64,000 bases of DNA from a bacterium (GCA_031441465.1 JANOEP010000066.1:94132-158131), one strand, 5' to 3'; shown: positions 22 through 43,978, counted from the stretch's first letter. The notes: generated by a model from the sequence alone, not told the origin. A program made the numbers and translations.

Positions 22-2160
22 GTGAAAATAAGTGGGCGCGCCTCCGGCCGAAGGTCTATCCTGGTAGCCATGAACGAACCAGCCGACGCGGGCCGCGCCC
101 GCCCCAGCGACAGCCGGTCCAACCGACTCGGCGACGAGGCGTCCGCCTACCTGCGGCAGCACGCCGGCAACCCCATCCACTGGCAGCCCTGGGACCGCGA
201 CGCCCTGGCGCACGCCCGCGACCGGGATCTGCCGATCTTCCTGTCGATCGGCTACGCGTCCTGCCACTGGTGCCACGTCATGGCGCACGAGGTCTTCGAG
301 GACGCGGAAGTGGCCGCGCTGCTGAACGAGCGGTTCGTCTGCATCAAGGTCGACCGCGAGGAACGCCCCGACCTGGACGAGGCCTACATGGCCGCCGTGA
401 CGGCGCAGTCCGGTCGCGGCGGCTGGCCGCTGTCGGTGTTCCTGACCTCGGACCTGCAGCCCTTCCACGGCGCCACCTACGTGCCTCGGGCGCGCTTCCT
501 GGAACTCTGCCACCGGATCGACGAAGCCTACCGCTCGCACCGCGGCGAGCTGCAGATCCAGGCGGGGCAGCTGGCCGGCGCGATCGCCGCCGTCCCGTTC
601 GACGACGACGGGCCGCCCATCACGACGGACGCGGTGGCGGCCGTGGCGCGGCAGGGCCTCGCCCACCACGACCCCGAATGGGGCGGTTTTCTGCAGCACC
701 AGAAGTTCCCCACGCCGTTGCGGTGGCAGTTCCTGCTGCACCACCACCGCCGCACCGGCGACCCGCTGGCCGCCACGGCGCTGCGACGCACGCTGGAGGC
801 GATGGCCACGGGTGGGATCCGCGACCACCTGGGCGGCGGTTTCCACCGCTACACGGTCGAGGAGACCTGGCTGGTGCCCCACTTCGAGATCATGCTCTAC
901 GACAACGCCCAGCTCGCGAGTCTCTACCTGGAGGCGGGCGCCGCCCTGGGTCAGCCGTGGTACCTCGGGGTGGCCCGCGACGTCCTGGATTTCCTGCTGG
1001 GCGAGATGCGCGATGGCGAGGGCGGCTTCTGCGCCAGCTTTGACGCCGACAGCGGCGGGCAGGAGGGCAGCTACTACGTCTGGACCCCGCAGGAGATCCT
1101 CGCGGCCGCGGGCGCGCGCGACGGGCCGCTGCTGGCGACCCTGCTCGGGGTGGCGCCCGGAGGCAACTTCGAGGGCCGCAGCATCCTGACGCGGCGCGTG
1201 GACGCGCCCCACGCGGCCATGCGGCACGGCCGCGAGCCGGCCGAGGCGGCGGCCTTGTTCGACCGTTTGCGCCCTCGACTGCGCGAGATCCGCGCAGCAC
1301 GCACCGCACCGGCGCGGGACCGCAAGATCGTGACCGCCTGGAACGGCCTGGCGTTGTCGGCGCTGGCGCGGGCCTCCGCACAACTCGACGAGCCCGCCTA
1401 CGGCCTGGCCGCCCGGCAAATCGCCGAACACCTCTGGTCGGCGCATCGCGACGCCCGTGGGCGCCTCGTGCGTGCGGTGACCGACGGCCGGCCCGCGGGC
1501 GAGGGCGTGCTCGACGACTACGCCTGCTTCGCCGAGGGCCTGCTGGACCTTTACCAGGCGACCGGCGACGCCGAACAGCTGCGGCGCGCCCACGAGTTGC
1601 TGGACACCGCCGTGACGCTCTTCGCCGACGACGAACTGGGGTTCGCCCTGACGGCCCGCGACGTCGACCTGCCTCTGGGCCGGCGCGCCGATTTCTTCGA
1701 CAGCGTCGAGCCCTCGGGCGCGGCCTCCCTGCTGCACGGCCTCTGGCGCGCGGCGCTGCTGGCGGGCGACCAGGCGGGGCAAGCGCGCGTGGTCGACCAC
1801 CTGCGCCGCCGCGGCGCGCTGCTGGAACGCGCCGGTCTGGAGATGGCCTGGTGGGCCGACGCGGCGCTGCTGGCCGTGGCCCCGGGCTACGCGGCGGTCA
1901 TCGCCGGTGATCCCGACGCCCGGGACACCCGCGCCTTGCGGGCCGCCTTCTGGAGCCTGGCGCCGCCCTGGGCGGTGCTGGCGACCGTGCCCGCGGCGGG
2001 CGCCGACGAATCCTTGCGTCCCCTGATTCCGGTGGCTGCCGGCCTGACGGCGCGCCACGGCCGCGCTGTCGCCCACGTCTGCCTTCCCGGCGCCTGCGGC
2101 GCCCCGACGTCGGACCCCGACGAGTTCGCGCGGCAGTTGCTCGGGGGCTGGAATTGCTGA
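22..2160 (+). CDS. YyaL/DUF255-family thioredoxin-domain protein
   Basis: 712-aa ORF. The N-terminal signature PIFLSIGYASCHWCHVMAHEVFED is the thioredoxin-like DUF255 motif. It is followed by a long alpha/alpha-toroid-like region typical of YyaL. Confidence 0.8.
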   Translation: MKISGRASGRRSILVAMNEPADAGRARPSDSRSNRLGDEASAYLRQHAGNPIHWQPWDRDALAHARDRDLPIFLSIGYASCHWCHVMAHEVFEDAEVAALLNERFVCIKVDREERPDLDEAYMAAVTAQSGRGGWPLSVFLTSDLQPFHGATYVPRARFLELCHRIDEAYRSHRGELQIQAGQLAGAIAAVPFDDDGPPITTDAVAAVARQGLAHHDPEWGGFLQHQKFPTPLRWQFLLHHHRRTGDPLAATALRRTLEAMATGGIRDHLGGGFHRYTVEETWLVPHFEIMLYDNAQLASLYLEAGAALGQPWYLGVARDVLDFLLGEMRDGEGGFCASFDADSGGQEGSYYVWTPQEILAAAGARDGPLLATLLGVAPGGNFEGRSILTRRVDAPHAAMRHGREPAEAAALFDRLRPRLREIRAARTAPARDRKIVTAWNGLALSALARASAQLDEPAYGLAARQIAEHLWSAHRDARGRLVRAVTDGRPAGEGVLDDYACFAEGLLDLYQATGDAEQLRRAHELLDTAVTLFADDELGFALTARDVDLPLGRRADFFDSVEPSGAASLLHGLWRAALLAGDQAGQARVVDHLRRRGALLERAGLEMAWWADAALLAVAPGYAAVIAGDPDARDTRALRAAFWSLAPPWAVLATVPAAGADESLRPLIPVAAGLTARHGRAVAHVCLPGACGAPTSDPDEFARQLLGGWNC

Positions 2161-2188
2161 GGCGCGCCGGCCCTGGTTGTGTGGGGTC

Positions 2189-2217
2189 TTGACGGCGACC
2201 ATAAATAAGAGTAAGAT
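2189..2217 (+). promoter_or_regulatory. sigma-70-like promoter candidate (TTGACG, 17 nt spacer, TAAGAT) in an AT-rich island upstream of trp
   Basis: The stretch cttgacggcgaccataaataagagtaagat is conspicuously AT-rich in a 70% GC context. The -35 hexamer is a good match. Confidence 0.3.
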
Positions 2218-2291
2218 CATCCACTGATCGCGGTCCAGCCGGCCGCTTGTTTCTTCAGAGTCCTCAGCTCAGGATCGGGAGTCCAGCACAG

Positions 2292-2399
2292 ATGTCCAGT
2301 CTCACCGCACGGACCGTCCACGCAGCCAACCGCCGATGGCGGTCGTGGCGTGGTCTGACGGGCGCGGAAGGTCGGCTGTGCGGAGGAACGGACCGGTAA
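2292..2399 (+). CDS. candidate trp leader peptide (35 codons, two Trp codons)
   Basis: ATG at 2292. It translates to MSSLTARTVHAANRRWRSWRGLTGAEGRLCGGTDR with stop TAA at 2397-2399. It is not in the ORF track because it is short. It ends 27 nt before the terminator hairpin. Confidence 0.3.
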   Translation: MSSLTARTVHAANRRWRSWRGLTGAEGRLCGGTDR

Positions 2400-2426
2400 C
2401 ACCGGACCTACCCCGATCCCCTCAGT

Positions 2427-2454
2427 CCCACCATCCGCAGATGGTGGGTTTTTT
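2427..2454 (+). terminator. intrinsic terminator / attenuator hairpin immediately upstream of trpE
   Basis: Stem cccaccatc, loop cgca, stem gatggtggg, followed by TTTTTT. The trpE ATG lies about 25 nt downstream. Confidence 0.55.
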
Positions 2455-2478
2455 CATGTCCGTGACAACGGAGGGACG

Positions 2479-3933
2479 ATGGGCACCACGACGCATCCCG
2501 GCTCGACGCGGCTCCGCACGCCCCGTCGGCGCCGTATCCCCGCCGACCTCGACACGCCGGTGTCGGCGTACCTGAAGCTGGCGCCGCTGGGCGCGTGCTT
2601 CCTGCTCGAGAGCGTGGAGAAGGGAATCCAGCTGGGCCGGCACTCCTTCGTCGGCATCGGCCCCTGCACCACGATCACGTTGCGCGACGGCACGGCGACC
2701 GTGGCGCGCGGCGGCGCCGAGCGCCGCGAGCCGGTCGATCCGGGCGACATCTTCGCCCCGGTCCGCCGCGAACTCGCGTCCCTGGACCTGCCGCCGGACC
2801 TGGACCTGCCGGCCCCGTTCGGCGGCGCGGTGGGCGCCATCGCCTACGATTGCGTGCGCCACTTCGAGCACGTACCGCTGCCCGAGACCGGCTGGCTGGA
2901 CGCGCCCGACTACCATTTCGTCATCCCGACGACCCTGGCGGTCTTCGACCACGTCAAGAGCGAGATCGAACTGTGGACCCTGGCGTCGGACGAGGGAACA
3001 CGGTCCGCCGACGAGCAGCTCGACCGGCTCTTGGCCGCGCTGGCCGCGCCCCTGCCGGCGCTACCGGCGGCGGCGCCGCCGGCGCCGCACGCCGCACCCG
3101 AGTTCTCGGTCACCCGCGAGGAGTTCGAGGCTTCCGTCCGCCGCGCCAAGGAACACATCCTGGCCGGCGACTGCTTCCAGGTCGTGCTGTCGCAGGCCCT
3201 GCGCGGGACGACCGCCGCCCACCCCTTCCATATCTACCGGGCGCTGCGCATCCTGAACCCCTCGCCCTACCTCTTCTACCTCGACCACGGCGACACGCAG
3301 GTGATCGGGTCTTCGCCCGAGGTGCTGGTGAAGCTCGAGCGCGGGCGCGTCACGCTGTGCCCGATCGCCGGCACCCGCCCGCGCGACGAGGACGTGGCCG
3401 CGGACCTCGCCCTGGAGCGGGATCTGCTGGCCGATCCGAAGGAACGCGCCGAGCACGTGATGCTCGTGGACCTGGGCCGCAACGATCTCGGCCGGGTCTG
3501 TGTGACCGACAGCGTGCGCACCGAAGCCTTCATGACGATCGAGCGCTACTCGCACGTCATGCACATCGTGTCGCGGATCACCGGGACGCTGCGGCCCGAA
3601 CACGACCAGTTCGACCTGCTGCGGGCGGCCTTTCCGGCCGGCACGGTGTCGGGCGCGCCGAAGATCCGGGCCATGGCGGTGATCTCCGAGCTGGAGGGAC
3701 TGCGGCGGGGGGCCTACGCCGGCGCCGTGGGCTACTTCGGCCCGCGCGGCGACATGGACATGAGCATCGCCATCCGCACCCTGCACGTCCGGGACGGCCG
3801 GTTCTACGCGCAGGCGGGAGCCGGCATCGTGGCCGATTCGGACCCCGGGCGTGAATACCAGGAGACTCTCGACAAGATCGGCGCGCTGATCCGCGCGGTG
3901 GAGATCGCCCAGGAGGGATTCCGATGCACCTGA
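2479..3933 (+). CDS. trpE: anthranilate synthase component I
   Basis: 484 aa. Contains LLESVEKG, SPEVLVKLERGRVTLCPIAGTRPR and IAIRTLHV, which are characteristic chorismate-binding TrpE motifs. Confidence 0.9.
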   Translation: MGTTTHPGSTRLRTPRRRRIPADLDTPVSAYLKLAPLGACFLLESVEKGIQLGRHSFVGIGPCTTITLRDGTATVARGGAERREPVDPGDIFAPVRRELASLDLPPDLDLPAPFGGAVGAIAYDCVRHFEHVPLPETGWLDAPDYHFVIPTTLAVFDHVKSEIELWTLASDEGTRSADEQLDRLLAALAAPLPALPAAAPPAPHAAPEFSVTREEFEASVRRAKEHILAGDCFQVVLSQALRGTTAAHPFHIYRALRILNPSPYLFYLDHGDTQVIGSSPEVLVKLERGRVTLCPIAGTRPRDEDVAADLALERDLLADPKERAEHVMLVDLGRNDLGRVCVTDSVRTEAFMTIERYSHVMHIVSRITGTLRPEHDQFDLLRAAFPAGTVSGAPKIRAMAVISELEGLRRGAYAGAVGYFGPRGDMDMSIAIRTLHVRDGRFYAQAGAGIVADSDPGREYQETLDKIGALIRAVEIAQEGFRCT

Positions 3934-4505
3934 TGATCGACAACTACGACTCGTTCACCTTCAACGTGGTCCAGGCGCTCGCGACGCTGGGCGCCGAGGT
4001 GGAGGTCGTGCGCAACGACGCGCTCAGCGTCGCGCAGATCGCGGCGCGGCGCCCCGCGTCGCTGATCATCTCGCCCGGGCCGGGCCGTCCCGTCGACGCG
4101 GGCGTCTCGCTCGCCGCGATCCGGGAATTCGCCGGGCGGATCCCGATCCTGGGTGTCTGCCTGGGTCACCAGTGCATCGTCGAGGCTTTCGGCGGCGAGG
4201 TGGTGCGGGCGGAGCGGGTCATGCACGGCAAGACCTCGCGCATCTACAACGACGGCCGCACCCTGTACGAAGGGATGTCGAACCCCTTCGAGGCGACGCG
4301 CTACCACTCGCTGATCGCGCGCGAGGAGACCCTGCCCGGAGTTCTGGAAATCAGCGCCTTCACGTCCGAGGGCGAGATCATGGGCGTGCGCCATCGCGAG
4401 CACCCGATCGAGGGCGTGCAGTTCCATCCCGAATCGATCCTGACGCGGGAGGGGCCGGCCCTGTTCGCGAACTTCCTGCGCCTGGCCGCCGCCGCCGTGC
4501 GCTGA
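3924..4505 (+). CDS. trpG: anthranilate synthase component II (glutamine amidotransferase)
   Basis: 193 aa starting MHLMIDNYDSFTFNVVQ. GVCLGHQ carries the catalytic Cys. Overlaps the trpE stop. Confidence 0.9.
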   Translation: MHLMIDNYDSFTFNVVQALATLGAEVEVVRNDALSVAQIAARRPASLIISPGPGRPVDAGVSLAAIREFAGRIPILGVCLGHQCIVEAFGGEVVRAERVMHGKTSRIYNDGRTLYEGMSNPFEATRYHSLIAREETLPGVLEISAFTSEGEIMGVRHREHPIEGVQFHPESILTREGPALFANFLRLAAAAVR

Positions 4506-4516
4506 AAGGAGGAGCC

Positions 4517-5541
4517 ATGGATCCCCGACTGCTCGATCGCCTGCTCGACGGCCGCGATCTGGACGCCGATCAGGCCGAAGCGCTCCTGGACGCGGTCATG
4601 GACGGAATCCTCGGCGAGGCGCGCCTCGCGGCCCTGCTGGCGGCCCTGCGCGCCAAGGGCGAGACCGAGGACGAGATCACCGGTTTCGCCCGGTCGCTGC
4701 GCCGGCACGCGGTGCGCGTCGAACCGGCGCCGAGCGGCGCGATCGACACCTGCGGCACCGGGGGCGACGGCTCCGGAAACTTCAACATCTCCACCGCGAC
4801 CGCGCTGGTGGCCGCGGCGATGGGCATCCCGGTGGCCAAGCACGGCAACCGGGCCGTCTCGTCGCGCTGCGGCAGCGCCGACGTCCTGGAGGCGCTGGGG
4901 GTGGCGGTGGACCTACCGCCGGAACGGGCCGCGGTCCTGGTGGAGAGCGTCGGCATCGGTTTCCTGTTCGCGCCCCTGCACCATCCCGCCCTGCGGCAGG
5001 CCGCGACCGTGCGCCGCGAACTCGGCGTGCGCACCGTCTTCAACCTGCTGGGTCCCCTGGCGAACCCGGCCGGGGTGCGCCGCCAATTGTTGGGCGTCTA
5101 CGCCCCCGCTCTGGTGCCGAAGATGGTCCGTGCGCTGCGCCGGCTCGGGACCGAGCGCGCCTTTGTGGTGCACGGCGACGACGGCTCCGACGAGGTCTCG
5201 CTGACCGGCCCGACGATGGTCGCCGAGCTGCGCGGCGGCGTGATCCGCACCACCGTGTTCGTGCCGGAGAAGGCGGGATTGCCGCGTTGTGCGGCGGCGG
5301 ACCTGTCCGGCGGCGACGCGCAGCTCAACGCGGCGCTGGTGCGTGGGGTCCTGGCGGGCGAGCCCGGGCCGCGGCGCGACGCCGTGCTGCTGAACGCGGG
5401 CTTCTGCGCGGTGCTGGCCGACCTCGCCGCGAACCCGGCGCAGGGCGTGGCCCTGGCCCGCCGCGCCGTCGAGTCGGGCGAGGCGTCGGCCGTGCTCGAG
5501 CGTCTGGTCGACGCTTCGCAGAAGCTGGCGAGGGAGGCGTC

Positions 5542-5545
<4 letters not shown>
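4517..5545 (+). CDS. trpD: anthranilate phosphoribosyltransferase
   Basis: In-frame ATG at 4517 preceded by aaggagg. Contains the TrpD glycine-rich motif CGTGGDGSGNFNISTA. The longer ORF-track version starting at 4172 was rejected. Confidence 0.85.
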
Positions 5546-6317
<772 letters not shown>

Positions 6318-6321
<4 letters not shown>

Positions 6322-6956
6322 GCCGCGTCCACGTCAAGATCTGCGGCCTGACCACCCCCGACGACGTGCGGTTCTGCCACGCCGCGGGCGCCCGCTACCT
6401 CGGCGTGATCCTCGCGCCGAGCCCGCGCCGCGTCGCGCCCGACGACGTGAAGCTGCTGCGCGACGCCGCGCCCGAGGCGCTGCTGGTGGGCGTCTTCGTG
6501 GACGCGCCGCTGCCGACCATCGGCCTCGCCGCGGACCACGCGGGCTTCGACTTCGTGCAGCTGCACGGGCGCGAGGACGCCGCGACGGTGCTGGCGGTGC
6601 GCGAGCGCTGCGGCGTGCCGGTCATCAAGGCCGTGCGGCCCGGCGAACTGGCGGACCCCGCCGTCGCCGCCGCCGCCGCCGAAGCCGCGGACTTCGTGCT
6701 GTTCGATCTGCCGAAGGGGTTCCCACCCGACGCGGGACTACGCGAGCGCCTGTGGGAGGAGGCCGCCGCCGCCGTGCGGGCGGGCCGCCGGGTCCTGCTG
6801 GGCGGCGGCCTGACGCCGGCGGACGCCGCCGAGGCGGCGCACCGGGTCCGGCCGTACGCGCTGGACGTGGCCTCGGGCGTCGAATCGGCGCCGGGTCGCA
6901 AGGATCCCGCCGCCGTCCGCGCCTTCATGGAGGAGGTCGCCCGTGTCCGCGCCTGA
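6318..6956 (+). CDS. trpF: phosphoribosylanthranilate isomerase
   Basis: GTG at 6318 overlaps the trpC stop. Starts VHVKICGLT and contains DFVQLHG, both PRAI motifs. Confidence 0.8.
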
Positions 6957-8142
6957 ATTCTCCGCAACAGGTCGCTTCGGCCTTTATGGCGGCCGCTACG
7001 TCCCCGAGACCCTGATGCCCGGACTGATCGAGCTGGAGGCCGCCTTCCACGCGGCCTGGGTCGACCCGGCGTTCCGGTCCAAACTCGACGCGCTGCGCCG
7101 CGACTACGGCGGCCGCCCGACGCCCCTGTTCCGCGCCCGCCGCTTCGGCGCGGCCCACGGCGGCGGGGCCGAAGTCTGGCTGAAGCGCGAGGACCTCAAC
7201 CACACCGGCGCCCACAAGATCAACAACAGCCTGGGCCAGGCGCTGCTCGCGCGGCGCATGGGCAAGCGGCGTGTGGTGGCCGAGACCGGCGCCGGCCAGC
7301 ACGGCGTGGCCACCGCCGCGGCCTGCGCCCTGTTGGGACTGGAGTGCGTGGTGCACATGGGCGAGGCGGACATGGCGCGCCAGGCGCCCAACGTCGCCCG
7401 CATGCGCCTGCTGGGAGCCCGCGTGGTCCCGGTCGGCGGCGGCAGCCGCACGCTCAAGGACGCCACCAGCGAGGCGATCCGCGACTGGGTCGCCAACGTC
7501 GCCACCACGCACTACATCCTGGGCTCGACCGTGGGTCCGCATCCCTACCCGACGATCGTGCGCGAACTGCAGGCGGTGATCGGCGGTGAGGCCCGCGCAC
7601 AGTTCCTGGCCGCGACGGGCCGGTTGCCCGCGACGGTCGTGGCCTGCGTGGGCGGCGGCAGCAACGCCCTGGGCATCTTCAGCGCTTTCCTCGCGGACGA
7701 CGGCGTCGCCCTAGTGGGCGTGGAGGCCGGCGGCTCGGCGGCCGGCCACTCGGCCGCTCTGGGACGCGGCACGCCCGGCGTCCTGCACGGCGCCTATTCC
7801 TACCTGCTCCAGGACGACGACGGCCAGGTCACCGCCGCCCATTCCATCGCCGCGGGCCTGGACTATCCCGGCGTGGGCCCCGAGCACGGGCACCTCAAGG
7901 ACACCGGCCGCGCCGTCTACGAGGAAGTCGACGACCGCGAGGCGCTCGCGGCTTTCCACGCGCTGTGCCGACTGGAAGGGATCATCCCCGCGCTGGAGTC
8001 CAGCCACGCGCTGGCCTGGGTCGCGCGCCGGCAGACGCAGGCGCCCGCGCTGGCGGGGCCGATCCTGGTGAACCTCTCGGGCCGCGGGGACAAGGACCTC
8101 GCCGAATTCGTGACCGGGTCCGCGGGAGGCGGCCCGTCATGA
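6943..8142 (+). CDS. trpB: tryptophan synthase beta chain
   Basis: 399 aa. Contains [16 protein letters not shown] and HTGAHKINN with the PLP lysine. Confidence 0.9.
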
Positions 8143-8950
8143 GGCTCGAGCAGACGACCCGCGCCGAGCGCGACGCCGGCCGCAAGGCCCTGGTGCCCTT
8201 CTTCACGGCGGGCTACCCGAGCGAGGCCGCGTTCCTCGACCTGGTGCGCGCGGCCGCGGACGCGGGCTGCCGCACCGTCGAGGTGGGTATCCCGTTCAGC
8301 GATCCGGTGGCCGACGGCCCGCTGATCCAGGCTTCGAGCCTGGCGGCGCTGCGCGGCGGCATGACCCTGCGCCGCGCCTTGGCGCTGACCGCACGGGCCA
8401 CGGCGGCGACGGGCGTGGGCGCCGTCGTGATGAGCTACGTGAACCCCGTGCTGCGGCTCGGCGCGGTGGAGTTCGCGGCGCGCGCCCGGGACGCGGGCGT
8501 CGTGGGCGTCATCCTGCCGGACGTGCCGCACGAGGAGGGCGGCCCGTGGCGCGGGCCGCTGGCGGCGGCCGGGCTGCCCCTGATCGAGCTGATCGCGCCG
8601 ACCACCGGCGCCGCGCGCGTCGCGGGCATCGCCGCGGACGCCCGCGGCTTCCTCTACCTGGTGGCCCTGACCGGGGTGACCGGCGCCGCCGCCGACCCGG
8701 CGGCCCACGCCGCGGCCCTGGTCGCGCACGCCCGCGCCGTCACCGACCTGCCCTGCTACGTCGGCTTCGGCGTGGCCGATCCCGCCGGCGCGCGCCGGGT
8801 CGCCCGCTCGGCCGATGGCGTGATCGTCGGCAGCGCCCTGGTGCGCTTGCTGCAGGCGGCGCCGGATCCGTCGTCCGGCATCCGCCACGTCGCCGATTTC
8901 TTGCACGCGCTGCGGGCGGCCCTCGAGCCGCCCGCGCAGGAGGTAACGTC

Positions 8951-8954
<4 letters not shown>
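8139..8954 (+). CDS. trpA: tryptophan synthase alpha chain
   Basis: ATG at 8139 overlaps the trpB stop in an ATGA overlap. Contains [24 protein letters not shown] and VGFGV, all TrpA motifs. Confidence 0.85.
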
Positions 8955-9973
<1,019 letters not shown>

Positions 9974-43902: not shown

Positions 43903-43978
43903 CCGACTATGCAAGGGATCGGCAAGAGGAAGCGGGCGGGGATGGGCCCCCGCCCGCTTCCTCTTGCCGATCCCGTGC

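Follow-up and report, generated by a model that had tools for sequence, protein, structure and literature searches.

What governs the tryptophan (trp) operon that begins at position 2479 of a 64,000-nucleotide (nt) stretch of bacterial DNA (GCA_031441465.1, JANOEP010000066.1:94132-158131; hereafter the window, meaning the whole stretch analysed, with positions counted from its first letter)? An earlier note on this DNA had proposed that the segment 2189-2478, directly upstream of trpE, is a leader in which a short open reading frame (ORF) with Trp codons controls the premature termination of transcription. Our comparison of this segment with related loci, together with predicted RNA folds, indicates that it is very probably a ribosome-mediated (leader-peptide) transcription attenuator, which would make the expression of trpEGDCFBA and of the DAHP synthase gene behind it dependent on charged tRNA-Trp. 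The core of the earlier proposal thus stands, since the promoter, the ORF, its Trp cluster and the terminator are conserved and an antiterminator with compensatory changes accompanies them, although its 5' strand is probably not the one first drawn. The elements on which this reading is built are the following.

2189-2217, + strand, sigma-70-type promoter: -35 TTGACG at 2189-2194, 17-nt spacer, -10 TAAGAT at 2212-2217
2277-2281, + strand, Shine-Dalgarno (SD) sequence GGGAG, 10 nt 5' of the leader ATG
2292-2399, + strand, leader peptide ORF (trpL-like): ATG at 2292, TAA at 2397-2399, 35 codons, peptide MSSLTARTVHAANRRWRSWRGLTGAEGRLCGGTDR
2305-2335, + strand, region 1: 5' strand of the leader hairpin and partner of region 2 in the unconstrained fold
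2364-2384, + strand, region 2: probable antiterminator 5' strand, inside the leader ORF, with the core GCGGAAGGUCGG at 2364-2375
2427-2435, + strand, region 3: terminator 5' arm CCCACCAUC (2427-2438 with the loop bases CGC, which pair in the antiterminator too)
2440-2454, + strand, region 4: terminator 3' arm GAUGGUGGG at 2440-2448, with U6 at 2449-2454

A single sequence is merely suggestive here, since two Trp within three codons are found in about 5% of the short ATG-started ORFs of the window, and relatives were sought with TrpE as the query. A scan of one genome per species returned matches of at most 53% identity, scattered over phyla and useless for alignment, and an exact look-up of the TrpE of the window itself gave no entry; a metagenome scan returned two closer loci, L081 (69%) and L082 (64%), and a protein search returned many more relatives, from 89% identity downwards, from which the upstream DNA of eleven further TrpE relatives was added. 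The resulting 13 relatives (L161-L166, L168, L170, L172-L174, L081 and L082) have TrpE identities to the window of 89% to 61%. Pair counts and folds given below for 12 orthologs refer to the 12 core-family sequences, namely the window and 11 orthologs.

The whole layout, comprising a TTGAC(G/A)-17-TAnnnT promoter, an SD sequence, a Trp-cluster ORF and a GC-rich hairpin with a T run, recurs in all 13 relatives, which is far beyond chance. Aligning the orthologous regions, a check suggested in the earlier note, showed the Trp codons and the hairpin to be conserved upstream of trpE in every one of them. The promoter-like island TTGACG...TAAGAT lies where that note had placed it and is likewise conserved: it is the only sigma-70-like site in 1800-3000, where shuffled sequences average 0.1, and the columns TTGACG and TA...T are invariant over the 11 orthologs of alignment A1. 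The -35 element of L172 is also TTGACG, while L173/L174 carry TTGACA-17-TATCAT/TATGAT. Transcription is predicted to start near 2224.

The 35-codon ORF with two closely spaced Trp codons in the context RRWRSWR, as first reported, is borne out by the sequence, with W16 at 2337-2339 and W19 at 2346-2348. Each of the 13 relatives has an ATG-started ORF of 30-38 codons with two to four clustered in-frame Trp codons; the ATG is an invariant alignment column, 10 of the 12 core-family sequences have their first Trp at codon 16, and a purine-rich SD sequence lies 9-10 nt 5' of the ATG in most main-clade orthologs. The Trp clusters read RRWRSWR, RRWWRWY, RHWWLWR, RYWRRWW, PLWWLWC, HRWWWWR, RLWWWWP, RQWWPWW, TRWWRWS, DWCWRWS and GWWAWRTW, and outside the cluster the peptide diverges freely among relatives.

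At the other end of the leader, the terminator hairpin CCCACCATC/CGCA/GATGGTGGG (2427-2448) is followed by T6 (2449-2454), and its perfect 9-base-pair (bp) stem, with six GC pairs and a 4-nt loop, has a hairpin energy of -15.2 kcal/mol. The end of the T6 tract lies 24 nt from the trpE ATG (2479), which agrees with the distance of about 25 nt given for this hairpin before. A stricter scan of both strands of the window, whose GC content is 70.7%, found eight terminator-like sites, and the one at 2427-2454 is the only one with an uninterrupted T6. The leader stop lies 25-31 nt from the terminator arm in the 12 core-family sequences. A second copy of the terminator 5'-arm motif, (T)GCCCGCC, stands directly 3' of the T run in most orthologs (L165, L166, L168, L172, L173, L174, L081 and L082, within the first ~15 nt or so past the T tract) and is absent from the window and its two closest relatives.

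The pairing that would compete with this terminator is the one between regions 2 and 3. Region 2 pairs with 2417-2438, a stretch that shares 2427-2438 with the terminator, so the two structures are mutually exclusive. Its core is the window version of a conserved box, CGGAUGGCAGG (GGA(U/A)GG), which is complementary to the terminator 5' arm CC(C)GCCAUCCG and in the window faces CCCACCAUCCGC (2427-2438). Over the 12 orthologs, the 2:3 helix comprises 13 pairs with 84.6% of cells paired, against 29-46% when the registers are slid by one to three columns; compensatory changes occur at four pairs, and the covariation score was reached by 2 of 500 shuffles. These pair counts come from anchored, gap-free alignments, since MAFFT misplaces the GGATGG box of L170 and L082 by a few columns.

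One position changes in step over three strands, with G/A/U in region 3 against C/U/A in region 2. Its 2:3 pair is CG in seven sequences, UA in three, AU in one and a mismatch in one, and the terminator stem pair, which thereby covaries as well, is GC in seven, AU in three and UA in two. The parts are therefore conserved, the 2:3 and 3:4 pairings exclude each other, and covariation is present in both among the sequences compared. Besides, the box lies at codon position 2 in L170 and L082 and at codon position 3 in the other ten sequences, and since the GGAUGG nucleotides are kept in two reading frames, it is apparently the RNA that is constrained and not the peptide. L081 retains ATCCGC though this no longer pairs within its terminator, which fits an antiterminator role. 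The last Trp codon lies 11-17 nt from region 2 in all 12 sequences. Taken together, 2364-2384 is probably the antiterminator strand.

Predicted folds are consistent with a switch of this kind. In the ribosome model, a Trp codon occupies the A site and positions -15 to +12 are covered; masking these positions with pairs allowed to span the ribosome gave noisy, state-dependent partners for region 3, and downstream-only folding, with no pair spanning the ribosome, was used instead. Under this scheme, the 2:3 helix forms in 12 of 12 sequences, with 10-14 bp (13 bp in the window), before region 4 exists, and it is still the minimum free energy (MFE) structure in seven of the 12 after region 4 has been added. 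In the free RNA of the window, region 2 is bound upstream of the Trp codons, region 3 is free and the terminator forms; with a ribosome on W16, the 1:2 pairing is broken and 2364-2384 pairs with 2417-2438, and with the ribosome at the stop codon the terminator is predicted again. By its MFE, the unconstrained RNA 2224-2478 does not stand out (z -1.62), so that a fold of the whole leader could not by itself have decided the matter. Folding of this RNA, which the earlier note had named as a check, does yield mutually exclusive terminator and antiterminator structures, with 2364-2384 as the antiterminator strand.

The upstream partner of region 2 is less uniform. In the unconstrained fold of the window, the 1:2 pairs are 2321-2327/2374-2380, 2329-2331/2370-2372 and 2333-2335/2365-2367, and in 10 of the 12 sequences region 2 finds an upstream partner before region 3 exists, mostly 18-35 nt 5' of the first Trp codon. 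The registers of these pairs differ among orthologs, so a shuffle z-score was used in place of column-wise covariation, and it averages -2.0 over the 12 sequences, all of them negative.

On these grounds the leader would work as follows, where we infer that the leader ORF is translated and that the ribosome stalls, as well as the timing of events and the part played by region 1. Transcription would begin near 2224 from the 2189-2217 promoter, and a ribosome would start on the 35-codon leader ORF. Under Trp shortage, the ribosome would stall at W16 or W19 (2337-2348) with its footprint ending about 12-15 nt downstream, leaving region 2 exposed and severed from region 1. While region 4 has yet to be made, region 2 could then capture positions 2417-2438, which comprise spacer bases and the 5' arm of the terminator; this would block terminator formation, and RNA polymerase would continue into trpE. 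When Trp is plentiful, the ribosome would pass region 2 and reach the stop codon at 2397; region 2 would be covered by the ribosome or paired again with region 1, as an anti-antiterminator, and regions 3 and 4 (2427-2448) would fold as the terminator, stopping transcription at the U6 tract.

Several observations weigh against this mechanism. With the ribosome stalled and the full RNA present, the terminator fold of the window reaches -37.9 kcal/mol, against -33.9 kcal/mol for the antiterminator fold, and with a terminator that is about 4 kcal/mol more stable, read-through must rely on the 2:3 helix forming first. A ribosome on W19 leaves region 2 unfreed if pairs may span the ribosome, and the free RNA of several orthologs is already predicted to form the 2:3 helix. 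Region 1 lies upstream of the Trp codons, not over them, and the 1:2 hairpin of the window is not significantly more stable than its shuffles (z -0.74). The antiterminator core of the window has two mismatches (A.A and C.C), and the 12 orthologs are kin, so that the shuffle controls overstate significance. The SD-ATG spacing of 9-10 nt is among the longer of those usually seen, and the window is the weakest version of the family, with just two Trp codons that are not adjacent.

Four further structural elements of the leader bear on the readings that remain to be weighed.

2230-2246, + strand, GC-rich 5' hairpin GCGGTC/CAGCC/GGCCGC, closely downstream of the predicted start and present in every predicted fold
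2329-2343, + strand, apical hairpin ACCGCC/GAU/GGCGGU of the window fold, containing the first Trp codon
2393-2405, + strand, small hairpin CCGGU/AAC/ACCGG, in the free and Trp-stalled folds of the window
2412-2419, + strand, C-rich box CCCGAUCC, between the leader stop and the terminator

The 5' hairpin has counterparts in the relatives, whose leaders usually also have a GC hairpin just past the predicted start; in most orthologs it stands at the equivalent place with a differing sequence. It possibly serves transcript stabilisation or RNA polymerase pausing. This hairpin is followed by TTGTTTCTTC (tail to 2256), and the scan scored the pair as terminator-like. In L173 and L174, the stem of the 5' hairpin, GCCCGCC...GGCGGG, is identical in sequence to the stem of their own terminator. 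The small hairpin 2393-2405 holds the leader stop UAA at its apex, with U2397 closing the stem and A2398-A2399 in the loop.

The C-rich box contains CGATCC, which is conserved in alignments A1 and A3, and in the MFE structure 2412-2419 (CCCGATCC) pairs over 8 bp with GGAUCGGG. The box is complementary to GGATCGGG (2272-2279), which overlaps the ribosome-binding site of the leader, and it matches the leader SD or start region in L165, L168, L172 and L081 too. We suggest that it either lengthens the antiterminator helix or binds the SD region of the leader (2272-2279), in which case it could block repeated translation of the leader.

These elements invite a more elaborate version of the proposed mechanism, in which the lineage has a distinct geometry that joins an ORF-internal antiterminator, an SD-blocking C-rich box and a trans-acting terminated RNA. 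In such an arrangement the Trp codons would sit at the apex of a long hairpin, and a ribosome translating through strand 2 would commit the transcript to termination; this would be helped by the 25-31 nt between stop codon and terminator, which is roughly as near as a ribosome can come to RNA polymerase. The C-rich box 2412-2419, once transcribed, would shut off further leader translation, and the terminated RNA of about 230 nt could have a trans-acting role like that of rnTrpL. As a joint proposal we regard this as doubtful, and we keep it as a tentative extension of the leader-peptide attenuator.

An account that keeps attenuation and changes its wiring is the one first drawn, in which the Trp-codon segment GAUGGCGG (2336-2343) pairs with CCACCAUC (2428-2435) as the antiterminator. 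The complementarity reported for gatggcgg and ccaccatc is real, as GATGGCGG and the reverse complement of CCACCATC agree in all but one of their 8 positions (7/8); the duplex reaches -15.6 kcal/mol in the window, is 80% paired over the 12 orthologs and matches at 8 of 8 positions in L162. The assigned role, however, does not hold up: there is no compensatory change, the covariation score (0.063) falls below the shuffle mean (0.094) over the 12 orthologs, and the complementarity stems from the invariant UGG codons and CCA. A ribosome on W16 or W19, with a footprint of roughly 2322-2358, would also cover this segment and make it unavailable exactly when antitermination is needed. Moreover, the segment is held in the apical hairpin, whose strands CCGCC and GGYGG are paired in 10-12 of the 12 orthologs in the RNAalifold consensus, and the 2:3 duplex is the stronger of the two in 11 of 12. 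We therefore consider this pairing improbable as the antiterminator.

Could the leader instead sense translation in general, or act as a constitutive partial terminator that sets a basal level, with the Trp codons incidental? The window has two Trp codons only, several free-RNA ortholog folds are already antiterminated, and in the actinobacterial ilvB and leuA leaders mutations of the candidate regulatory codons were without the effects expected of classical attenuation (PMC1262725). Against this, the Trp cluster is the sole conserved feature of the peptide, present in 14 of 14 leaders (the window and 13 relatives), where the chance rate is about 5%; it lies at a fixed distance 5' of region 2, and the operon that it precedes makes tryptophan. 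Incidental Trp codons are, in our judgement, quite improbable.

T-box and TRAP mechanisms control trp operons in other phyla, and a trans-acting factor, either uncharged tRNA-Trp bound by a T-box-type element or a TRAP-like protein, might control termination with the ORF playing no part in sensing. One unrelated locus, L124, does have a T-box-like motif upstream of trpE. A search of 2100-2600 against Rfam at E<=10 gave no match, including none to T-box (RF00230) or Trp_leader (RF00513), and at the Rfam gathering score there was none in the whole window or in 17 loci, 13 of them the relatives; neither our leader nor the 13 ortholog loci thus contain a T-box or other Rfam match. A TRAP site consists of 9-11 (G/U)AG triplets spaced 2-3 nt apart, whereas 2224-2478 has four such triplets, none at the required spacing and forming no regular array. 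Factor binding would also fail to explain why conserved Trp codons stand in frame in an ORF that has an ATG start and an SD sequence before it, and we hold control of this kind to be highly improbable. In L124, a metagenomic contig, the T-box-like motif GGGTGGCACCACGGG at 2895-2965 is followed by a terminator-like hairpin, and Rfam made no call at its gathering score.

The least credible account, that the hairpin and T tract merely terminate the gene upstream (22-2160) or a small independent transcript and that the ORF is a chance frame, can point to a DUF255/thioredoxin gene on the same strand without another obvious terminator, but a conserved promoter separates that gene from the hairpin, the ORF is conserved along with its frame and its Trp codons, and the leader stays with trpE under changed upstream genes (L170, L173 and L174), which excludes an upstream-gene terminator.

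What a leader-peptide attenuator at this place would control follows from the genes around it.

22-2160, + strand, upstream gene for a DUF255/thioredoxin-domain protein of 712 amino acids
2479-3933, + strand, trpE (Pfam)
3924-4505, + strand, trpG (Pfam)
4517-5545, + strand, trpD (Pfam)
5542-6321, + strand, trpC (Pfam)
6318-6956, + strand, trpF (Pfam)
6943-8142, + strand, trpB (Pfam)
8139-8954, + strand, trpA (Pfam)
8951-9973, + strand, DAHP synthase (Pfam), with an N-terminal ferredoxin-like (FXD) domain, overlapping the end of trpA

Start and stop codons overlap at six of the seven operon junctions, and a gap of 11 nt separates trpG from trpD; the overlapping junctions in 2479-9973 suggest one transcript. 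Since DAHP synthase comes last in the operon, the attenuator would also control entry into the shikimate pathway. Coupling of trpE to the leader ORF by reinitiation was considered as well and is unlikely, since 79 nt lie between the leader stop and the start codon of trpE. The upstream DUF255/thioredoxin gene is syntenic with the trp leader in L161-L168 and L172 and is not found there in L170, L173 and L174, where the leader stays with trpE despite a different or opposite-strand upstream neighbour. Elsewhere in the window, a palindromic GC hairpin at 43932-43957, GCGGGCGGGG...CCCCGCCCGC, has T-rich tails and scores as terminator-like on either strand, so that convergent genes may share it as a bidirectional terminator. 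A tRNA scan of the 64-kb window found none.

As for the organism, the nearest named TrpE relatives belong to Candidatus Krumholzibacteria or Krumholzibacteriia, which are the sole informative source names, and on the basis of this one gene the window probably comes from Krumholzibacteriota or a close neighbour. The FCB/Gemmatimonadota-like lineage guessed before was thus roughly right, with the TrpE neighbours pointing to Candidatus Krumholzibacteria in particular. A covariance model of the leader family, R1, scores 143 bits on the window and, weakly in both cases, 23.4 bits on L174 and 12.8 bits on L173, and it found no members among 158 TrpE loci of other phyla. An R1 match upstream of trpE in L124 belongs to the unrelated, T-box-like leader mentioned above. 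Our literature search found no account of trp regulation in Krumholzibacteria, the sole co-mention of Krumholzibacteria and tryptophan being an unrelated bioreactor study.

The leader is best read, from the sequences compared, as a lineage-specific RNA family without an Rfam match whose proposed mechanism is already known. It adds a covariation-backed family of trp attenuators to a candidate phylum known from metagenomes only, and it gives annotators of these genomes a missing small ORF and a regulatory RNA upstream of trpE. For these uncultured organisms it predicts that tryptophan supply controls the whole eight-gene operon, DAHP synthase included. It opens no new mechanism, and it supports the view that leader-peptide trp attenuation is widespread and has arisen repeatedly instead of being a proteobacterial speciality.

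How, then, does this leader compare with known systems? With trpL of E. coli and Salmonella it shares the order of promoter, SD sequence, Trp-cluster ORF and terminator before trpE, the alternative pairings 1:2 (here a predicted one), 2:3 and 3:4, and an operon that begins with trpE. In the E. coli trp leader, too, the terminator is thermodynamically favoured and the 2:3 pairing must form first, as modelled here for the window. The geometry differs, however. The E. coli ORF has 14 codons, whereas that of the window has 35; the Trp codons are adjacent in E. coli and lie within strand 1, whereas here two codons separate them and they occupy the tip of a hairpin about 80 nt long (2305-2384). Strand 2 follows the stop codon in E. 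coli, whereas in the window it forms part of the ORF, at 15-24 nt 5' of the stop codon, and the ribosome would accordingly act by translating through it and not by masking it from the stop codon. The leader matches neither the sequence nor the structure of the Trp_leader family RF00513 (E<=10); it would work like trpL while standing outside that RNA family.

A second comparison is with the leader-peptide attenuators of the trp genes in Corynebacterium glutamicum and in Streptomyces venezuelae and coelicolor (PMC1262725). These share with our leader a high GC content, a Trp-codon leader, there with two or three UGG codons, and a GC-rich terminator with a poly-U tract (PMC1262725). A short motif common to the antiterminator and terminator strands is shared as well, here GGAUGGC / GCCAUCC / GGAUGGC, although the actinobacterial motif, gGCC-rGCy-GGCC, differs, the phylum is another one, and the two groups of leaders, which were not aligned here, have no detectable homology. 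A further paper cites trp leader-peptide attenuators for Chlamydia and Deinococcus (PMC7968998, section 37).

Trp-rich leaders that have terminators but are unrelated to ours also turned up in a scan of 160 TrpE loci from many phyla, namely in Binataceae, Syntrophales/Smithella and Thermaceae. Their motifs are CAGWWRWH in Binataceae-type metagenome-assembled genomes, NWWWWN in Syntrophales/Smithella, and RRWWPG and GWWWPG in Thermaceae, with further cases on other metagenomic contigs (L009, L010, L018, L023, L105; L057, L116, L117, L134, L136, L152; L045, L126; L085, L092 in all); the three of these leaders that were scanned had no Rfam match. Since leader-peptide trp attenuation was already known outside Proteobacteria, the suggestion that such a layout would be unusual there was overstated, as the cases from Corynebacterium, Streptomyces, Chlamydia and Deinococcus and the 160-locus scan make plain.

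In Sinorhizobium meliloti, too, a leader-peptide attenuator, trpL, lies close to trpE; termination there releases a short leader RNA, rnTrpL, which has a trans-acting role separate from that of the peptide peTrpL (PMC6614838, PMC7298713). The terminated RNA predicted here, at about 230 nt, would be much longer than that of Sinorhizobium. With the T-box and TRAP control of trp genes in Firmicutes and relatives, our leader would share the outcome, in that Trp supply sets the choice between terminator and antiterminator; there the sensor is a tRNA or a protein, whereas here we propose that it is the translating ribosome.

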